Shown here: one piece after another, positions 20,296 through 20,372 of the stretch
How positions within the stretch are numbered: the first letter of the stretch is position 1
How the letters are laid out: every line of letters starts with the position of its first letter
Origin: Escherichia coli
Lineage (GTDB): Bacteria; Pseudomonadota; Gammaproteobacteria; Enterobacterales; Enterobacteriaceae
Direction: 5' to 3' (one strand)
DNA: 64,000 nucleotides
Assembly: GCF_003334815.1 (NCBI RefSeq)
Contig: NZ_QOWO01000001.1
Made by a program: the position numbers and the translations under genes
The notes under the pieces: generated by a model
What the model was told of the DNA's origin: nothing
What the model saw: only the letters and a program-made list of their open reading frames with translations
Database searches by the model: none

Positions 20296-20372
20296 TGGTT
20301 GCGGGGGCCGGATTTGAACCGACGACCTTCGGGTTATGAGCCCGACGAGCTACCAGGCTGCTCCACCCCGCG
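20296..20372 (-). tRNA. metY: Initiator tRNA-fMet (CAU anticodon) at the metY locus
   Basis: Reverse complement reads CGCGGGGTGGAGCAGCCTGGTAGCTCGTCGGGCTCATAACCCGAAGGTCGTCGGTTCAAATCCGGCCCCCGCAACCA, 77 nt with CCA encoded. Confidence 0.97.

Follow-up and report, generated by a model that had tools for sequence, protein, structure and literature searches.

When a stretch of Escherichia coli DNA is nearly identical to K-12 and yet carries G at position 46 of the initiator tRNA gene metY, is it an ordinary gene of another strain or an altered gene of K-12? The question is raised by metY at 20296..20372 on the minus strand of the window, the name used here for the whole stretch of 64,000 bases that was analyzed. 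In K strains tRNA1-fMet carries m7G46 and tRNA2-fMet carries A46; the four genes of E. coli B all specify tRNA1-fMet (PMC3017606). The same statement on K and B strains has been repeated for strain MRE600 (PMC6511841). The difference between K-12 and B was published in 1992 (Mandal & RajBhandary, J Bacteriol 174:7827, as cited in PMC3017606), and a preprint that aligned six reference strains found A46 in K-12 metY only and termed G46 canonical (bioRxiv 10.64898/2026.04.16.719103, 2026). The G46/A46 difference is already known, with a published record that begins in 1992, and G46 in metY is a known, ordinary allele.

The initiator tRNA gene and its position 46

The gene was assigned as metY, an initiator tRNA-fMet gene with a CAU anticodon, from ARAGORN, Rfam, its fold and its identity to K-12 metZ, metW and metV. 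ARAGORN places a minus-strand tRNA-Met (CAT) at 20296-20372, with the anticodon cat at position 35, and the tRNA model RF00005 of Rfam matches the same interval with 61 bits. The sense strand, CGCGGGGTGGAGCAGCCTGGTAGCTCGTCGGGCTCATAACCCGAAGGTCGTCGGTTCAAATCCGGCCCCCGCAACCA, is 77 nt long, and the minimum-energy fold of the tRNA is a cloverleaf in which base 1 is unpaired and the variable loop has five bases, AGGUC. There is no Watson-Crick pair at 1:72, where C1 stands opposite A72 (5' end CGCGGGG, 3' acceptor strand CCCCGCA). The D stem, GAGC/GCTC, gives A11:U24, a pair that is a defining feature of bacterial initiator tRNA. The anticodon stem, TCGGG/CCCGA, has three consecutive G:C pairs, G29-G30-G31 with C39-C40-C41; three G:C pairs at 29-31:39-41 are a feature of initiator tRNA (PMC3017606). 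By its anticodon, its 1:72 position, its G:C pairs and its A11:U24 pair, the gene at 20296-20372 is a bacterial initiator tRNA.

Owing to an additional base (17a) in the D loop of this tRNA, canonical position 46 falls on linear nucleotide 47, at window base 20326. Coordinate mapping gives C on the plus strand and G in the tRNA at this base, which lies within the variable loop A44-G45-G46-U47-C48. The string quoted for this region in a preliminary description of the window, CCCGAAGGTCGTCGG, is found on the minus strand at 20319-20333, so that the window text shows its reverse complement. The same description had stated that K-12 metY has A at this position, and the alignment with MG1655 bears this out: MG1655 metY (NC_000913.3, 3318213-3318289) has A46, and this is the sole mismatch to the window in a 261-nt alignment. 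Six sequences were then compared, with BAP1, a BL21(DE3) derivative, as the representative of the B lineage. The window metY is identical to K-12 metZ, metW and metV (77/77 bases) and to BAP1 metY, and only K-12 metY deviates. In these alignments with K-12 metY, metZWV and the BL21 lineage, G46 was not seen in K-12 metY. The G that the description gives for E. coli B is present in BAP1 metY and is likewise stated for B in the literature (PMC3017606; PMC6511841). With G46 and with identity to the metZWV product, the window metY is of the tRNA-fMet1 type.

Distribution of the A46 allele

The frequency of the two alleles was surveyed in a collection of 5,426 complete E. coli genomes using a 98-nt query made up of the tRNA and metY-specific flanks. 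The G form of this locus has an exact match in 5,001 of the 5,426 genomes and the K-12 (A) form in 365. A 30-mer centered on A46 was also used; as a 30-mer with a differing central base cannot seed megablast, it reports A46 carriers only, and it was found in 365 of the 5,426 genomes, in a single copy each and always on the chromosome. By this 30-mer, none of the 5,426 genomes has A46 more than once. A46 is absent from 5,061 of the 5,426 genomes, in agreement with the statement in the preliminary description that many other strains have G, and G46 is the general, nearly universal E. coli state. Judged by the paralogous copies, G46 is the ancestral state as well.

Strain names were read for some 120 of the 365 genomes with A46. 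The first 60 A-form records, and nearly all of 60 further records picked at regular intervals along the ranking, are recognizable K-12 laboratory strains, with MG1655, EMG2, C600, DH5alpha, DH10B, MC4100, XL1-Blue, HB101 and J53 among the A46 strains named. Field metadata accompany three A46 genomes, SF10 (duck), EC06 (human gut) and USML2 (oil palm). Over 40 kb these differ from MG1655 by 5, 0 and 2 SNPs, respectively, and all three carry a K-12-private allele of nusA described below; they are members of the K-12 lineage, since they combine this allele with only 0-5 SNPs. A46 is thus a marker of the K-12 lineage, a single private G-to-A transition, and all A46 genomes that were sampled or checked belong to that lineage. 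What the survey adds to the published comparisons is a number: across 5,426 genomes A46 never occurs in the metZWV copies, and outside the K-12 lineage it was found in none of the genomes as far as sampled.

Several further observations were made in these genomes. SF10 (NZ_CP079767.1) was deposited as a duck cloacal swab isolate and USML2 (NZ_CP011124.1) as an oil palm leaf isolate; these two strains either represent K-12-clade members living in the wild or are laboratory or recipient strains deposited under the metadata of a donor. The number of places with an initiator tRNA gene ranges from 1 to 8 per genome in the E. coli genome survey, with a median of 4, and 4 such places are on plasmids. 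The K-12 derivatives J53 and ME8067 have 2 places only, which suggests copy loss in the metZWV tandem array. In BL21-RIPL (NZ_CP083273.1) there are 6 places and the best match to the 98-nt query spans the 77-nt tRNA body only; the metY flanks of this genome seem to be altered or missing.

The evidence as a whole, none of which speaks against it, favors, with a probability of about 0.93, the reading that the window metY is the normal metY of a non-K-12 E. coli, with G46 as the ancestral state and A46 private to K-12. In such a strain, G46 would be methylated to m7G46 by TrmB/YggH, in keeping with the reported formation of m7G46 by YggH (PMC7949028). From established knowledge of tRNA structure, the variable-loop base at position 46 would make the 13-22-46 tertiary contact. 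The initiator pool of K-12 is approximately 75% G46 and 25% A46 (PMC8887418), and the G46 and A46 species resolve on native gels (PMC3017606). With G46 at metY, four genes would encode one molecule, as in E. coli B, and a single electrophoretic initiator species would be expected, provided that metZWV, which lies outside the window, has G46 as well. G46 is presumed at those copies because the survey returned no genome with A46 in more than one copy.

Origin of the window

The window is colinear over its full length with MG1655 3297918-3361917 and differs from it by 10 SNPs and 0 indels over 64,000 bases (99.984% identity). A three-way comparison of the window, MG1655 and the close field isolate CFSAN061772, a neighbor of CFSAN061762, divides the 10 SNPs into 3 K-12-private alleles, all absent from the window, and 7 alleles that are absent from both MG1655 and CFSAN061772. 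The K-12-private alleles are metY G46A at 20326, a synonymous change in nusA at 18460 (L384; TTG in K-12, CTG in the window and CFSAN061772) and a synonymous change in gltF at 63903 (A215; GCT in K-12, GCC in the window and CFSAN061772). For the nusA and gltF sites, "K-12-private" refers to the three-genome comparison together with three further K-12-lineage genomes, SF10, EC06 and USML2. In these three, nusA L384 TTG occurs together with metY A46, and the sites at 18460 and 63903 are candidates for additional markers of the K-12 lineage.

The seven remaining alleles comprise a synonymous change in yraQ (39), K126R in yraR (codon 126; 553), an intergenic change in common with strain ML35 (982), D222N in ubiU (codon 222; 4231), A11T in nusA (codon 11, GCC to ACC; 19579), a synonymous change in ftsH (28704) and a second intergenic change (63071). 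A 31-mer centered on the site of NusA A11T has no match in the 5,426 complete genomes. No genome among the 5,426 matches the window exactly, and the best matches over window positions 1-25000 differ at 5 sites.

These differences bear on whether the window could come from a K-12 derivative whose metY has returned to G46, by gene conversion from metZWV or by engineering. The identity to MG1655 and the lack of indels fit such an origin, and the three metZWV copies are possible donors; however, a conversion tract bounded by 77 nt of homology cannot explain the non-K-12 alleles at 18460 and 63903, and the seven further SNPs are scattered from position 39 to 63071. The K-12 genomes checked over the same 40 kb have 0-5 SNPs relative to MG1655, and all of them have retained A46 and the nusA allele. 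A simple reversion of metY, or its conversion, in a K-12 background is highly improbable and was rejected, as the window lacks every K-12-private allele that it could carry. The view in the preliminary description that the window is not from a K-12 derivative, which had been drawn from metY, gains support from two more K-12-private SNPs in the non-K-12 state and from seven further differences from MG1655.

The non-K-12 alleles could also have been brought into a K-12 or hybrid background together, on a segment 64 kb or more in length from a non-K-12 donor, through transduction or conjugation. Hybrids of K-12 and B do exist, HB101 being an example, but A46 has been kept in both sequenced HB101 genomes. 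The window contains no junction, with non-K-12 alleles at both of its ends (39 and 63903), and there is no positive evidence for such a transfer, which is very unlikely.

The B lineage of E. coli (BL21, REL606) is the textbook case of G46, and origin from it would account for the tRNA itself, as B metY has the same sequence. The flanks do not follow: in 3,098 bases surrounding metY, BAP1 and the window disagree at 9 (99.7%), whereas MG1655 has 3 mismatches in the same stretch and 10 over all 64,000 bases. On this divergence a B-lineage origin was rejected, and its chance of being correct is negligible. By comparison of these sequences, the window appears to come from a phylogroup-A-like strain that is very closely related to K-12 and belongs to neither the K-12 nor the B lineage. 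The source would be a strain not yet sampled, with a haplotype extremely close to that of K-12 in this region.

The surroundings of metY are those of a normal locus. The gene is located between argG and rimP-nusA-infB, the arrangement seen in all annotated E. coli records with a match to this region. From the annotation of identical or colinear records, argG (20720..22063, plus strand) is the divergent upstream neighbor that defines the metY locus; rimP (19637-20089, minus strand) and nusA (18122-19609, minus strand, with the variable sites 18460 and 19579) are downstream genes of the operon. A rimP leader is located between metY and rimP at 20107..20207 on the minus strand (Rfam RF01770, 102 bits), and two terminator-like hairpins lie in the same interval at 20174-20151 and 20126-20114. 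Elsewhere in the window, a naRNA4/REP-type element between pnp and rpsO (15338-15408, minus strand; Rfam, 68 bits) and leuU, the tRNA-Leu(GAG) gene upstream of secG (24155-24241, minus strand), are both ordinary features and identical to K-12.

Three promoter cores were located on the minus strand. P-1 (20454..20497) has the arrangement TTGACA-18-TATAAT with 12/12 consensus bases and was matched by a consensus scan at 20494..20465. P0 (20378..20419), which includes TAGAAT, was matched at 20417..20388, and its region is identical to MG1655. P2 (20255..20296), directly 3' of metY, is an exact match to the published P2 sequence (PMC6511841). Relative to the same publication, one spacer base differs in each of the other two promoters: in P-1, GGCATGG in the paper is GGCGTGG in the window and MG1655, and in P0, GCATCTTT in the paper is GCATTTTT in the window and MG1655. 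Such one-base promoter differences have been reported between K-12 and MRE600 (PMC6511841). As the P-1 and P0 spacers are those of MG1655 and the tRNA has G46, the window joins K-12-type promoter spacers to a B-type tRNA body. All features of a metY locus were found, namely its placement between argG and rimP-nusA-infB, P-1, P0, P2 and the rimP leader. By analogy with the published operon, P-1 and P0 would transcribe metY as the first gene of a metY-rimP-nusA-infB operon, and the tRNA would be excised from the transcript (PMC6511841).

The reading of the gene as the normal metY of a non-K-12 strain can be extended. The window may come from an unsampled natural strain that approximates the immediate ancestor of K-12 in this region, so that K-12 is separated from it by three derived changes, one of which is G46A, with SF10 and USML2, which have field metadata and a few private SNPs, as wild members of the K-12 clade and not as laboratory strains that escaped or were mislabelled. 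This joint reading is a tentative one and rather unlikely. If it is true, tRNA-fMet2 arose very recently, yet before the isolation of K-12 in 1922, and still circulates in nature.

The practical use of the result is as a strain marker: one base of metY is enough to tell the K-12 lineage, 365 of the 5,426 complete genomes, from the rest. The marker helps in the present case, as the window, with 10 SNPs relative to MG1655 in 64 kb, could otherwise pass for K-12. To our knowledge, no strong phenotype is associated with the G46/A46 difference, and the scientific weight of the finding is small.

Comparison with known initiator tRNA genes

The closest known counterpart is K-12 metY (b3171, tRNA-fMet2), which has the same locus, orientation, promoters P-1, P0 and P2, leader and flanking genes, and which agrees with the window gene at 76/77 tRNA bases. 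It differs in having A46, and tRNA-fMet2 is a separable minor species in K-12; the window gene, with G46, is predicted to give a tRNA of the tRNA-fMet1 type that serves as a substrate for m7G46 methylation. The mature 77-nt tRNA of K-12 metZ, metW and metV (tRNA-fMet1) is identical to that of the window metY. These three genes stand in tandem between mltA and amiC and have a promoter of their own, whereas the window gene is the leading gene of the rimP-nusA-infB operon. The metY of E. coli B shares both the locus and the G46 allele with the window and provides the published precedent for a single initiator tRNA species (PMC3017606). Its flanks stand further from the window, with 9 mismatches in 3.1 kb; the haplotype of the window is K-12-like.
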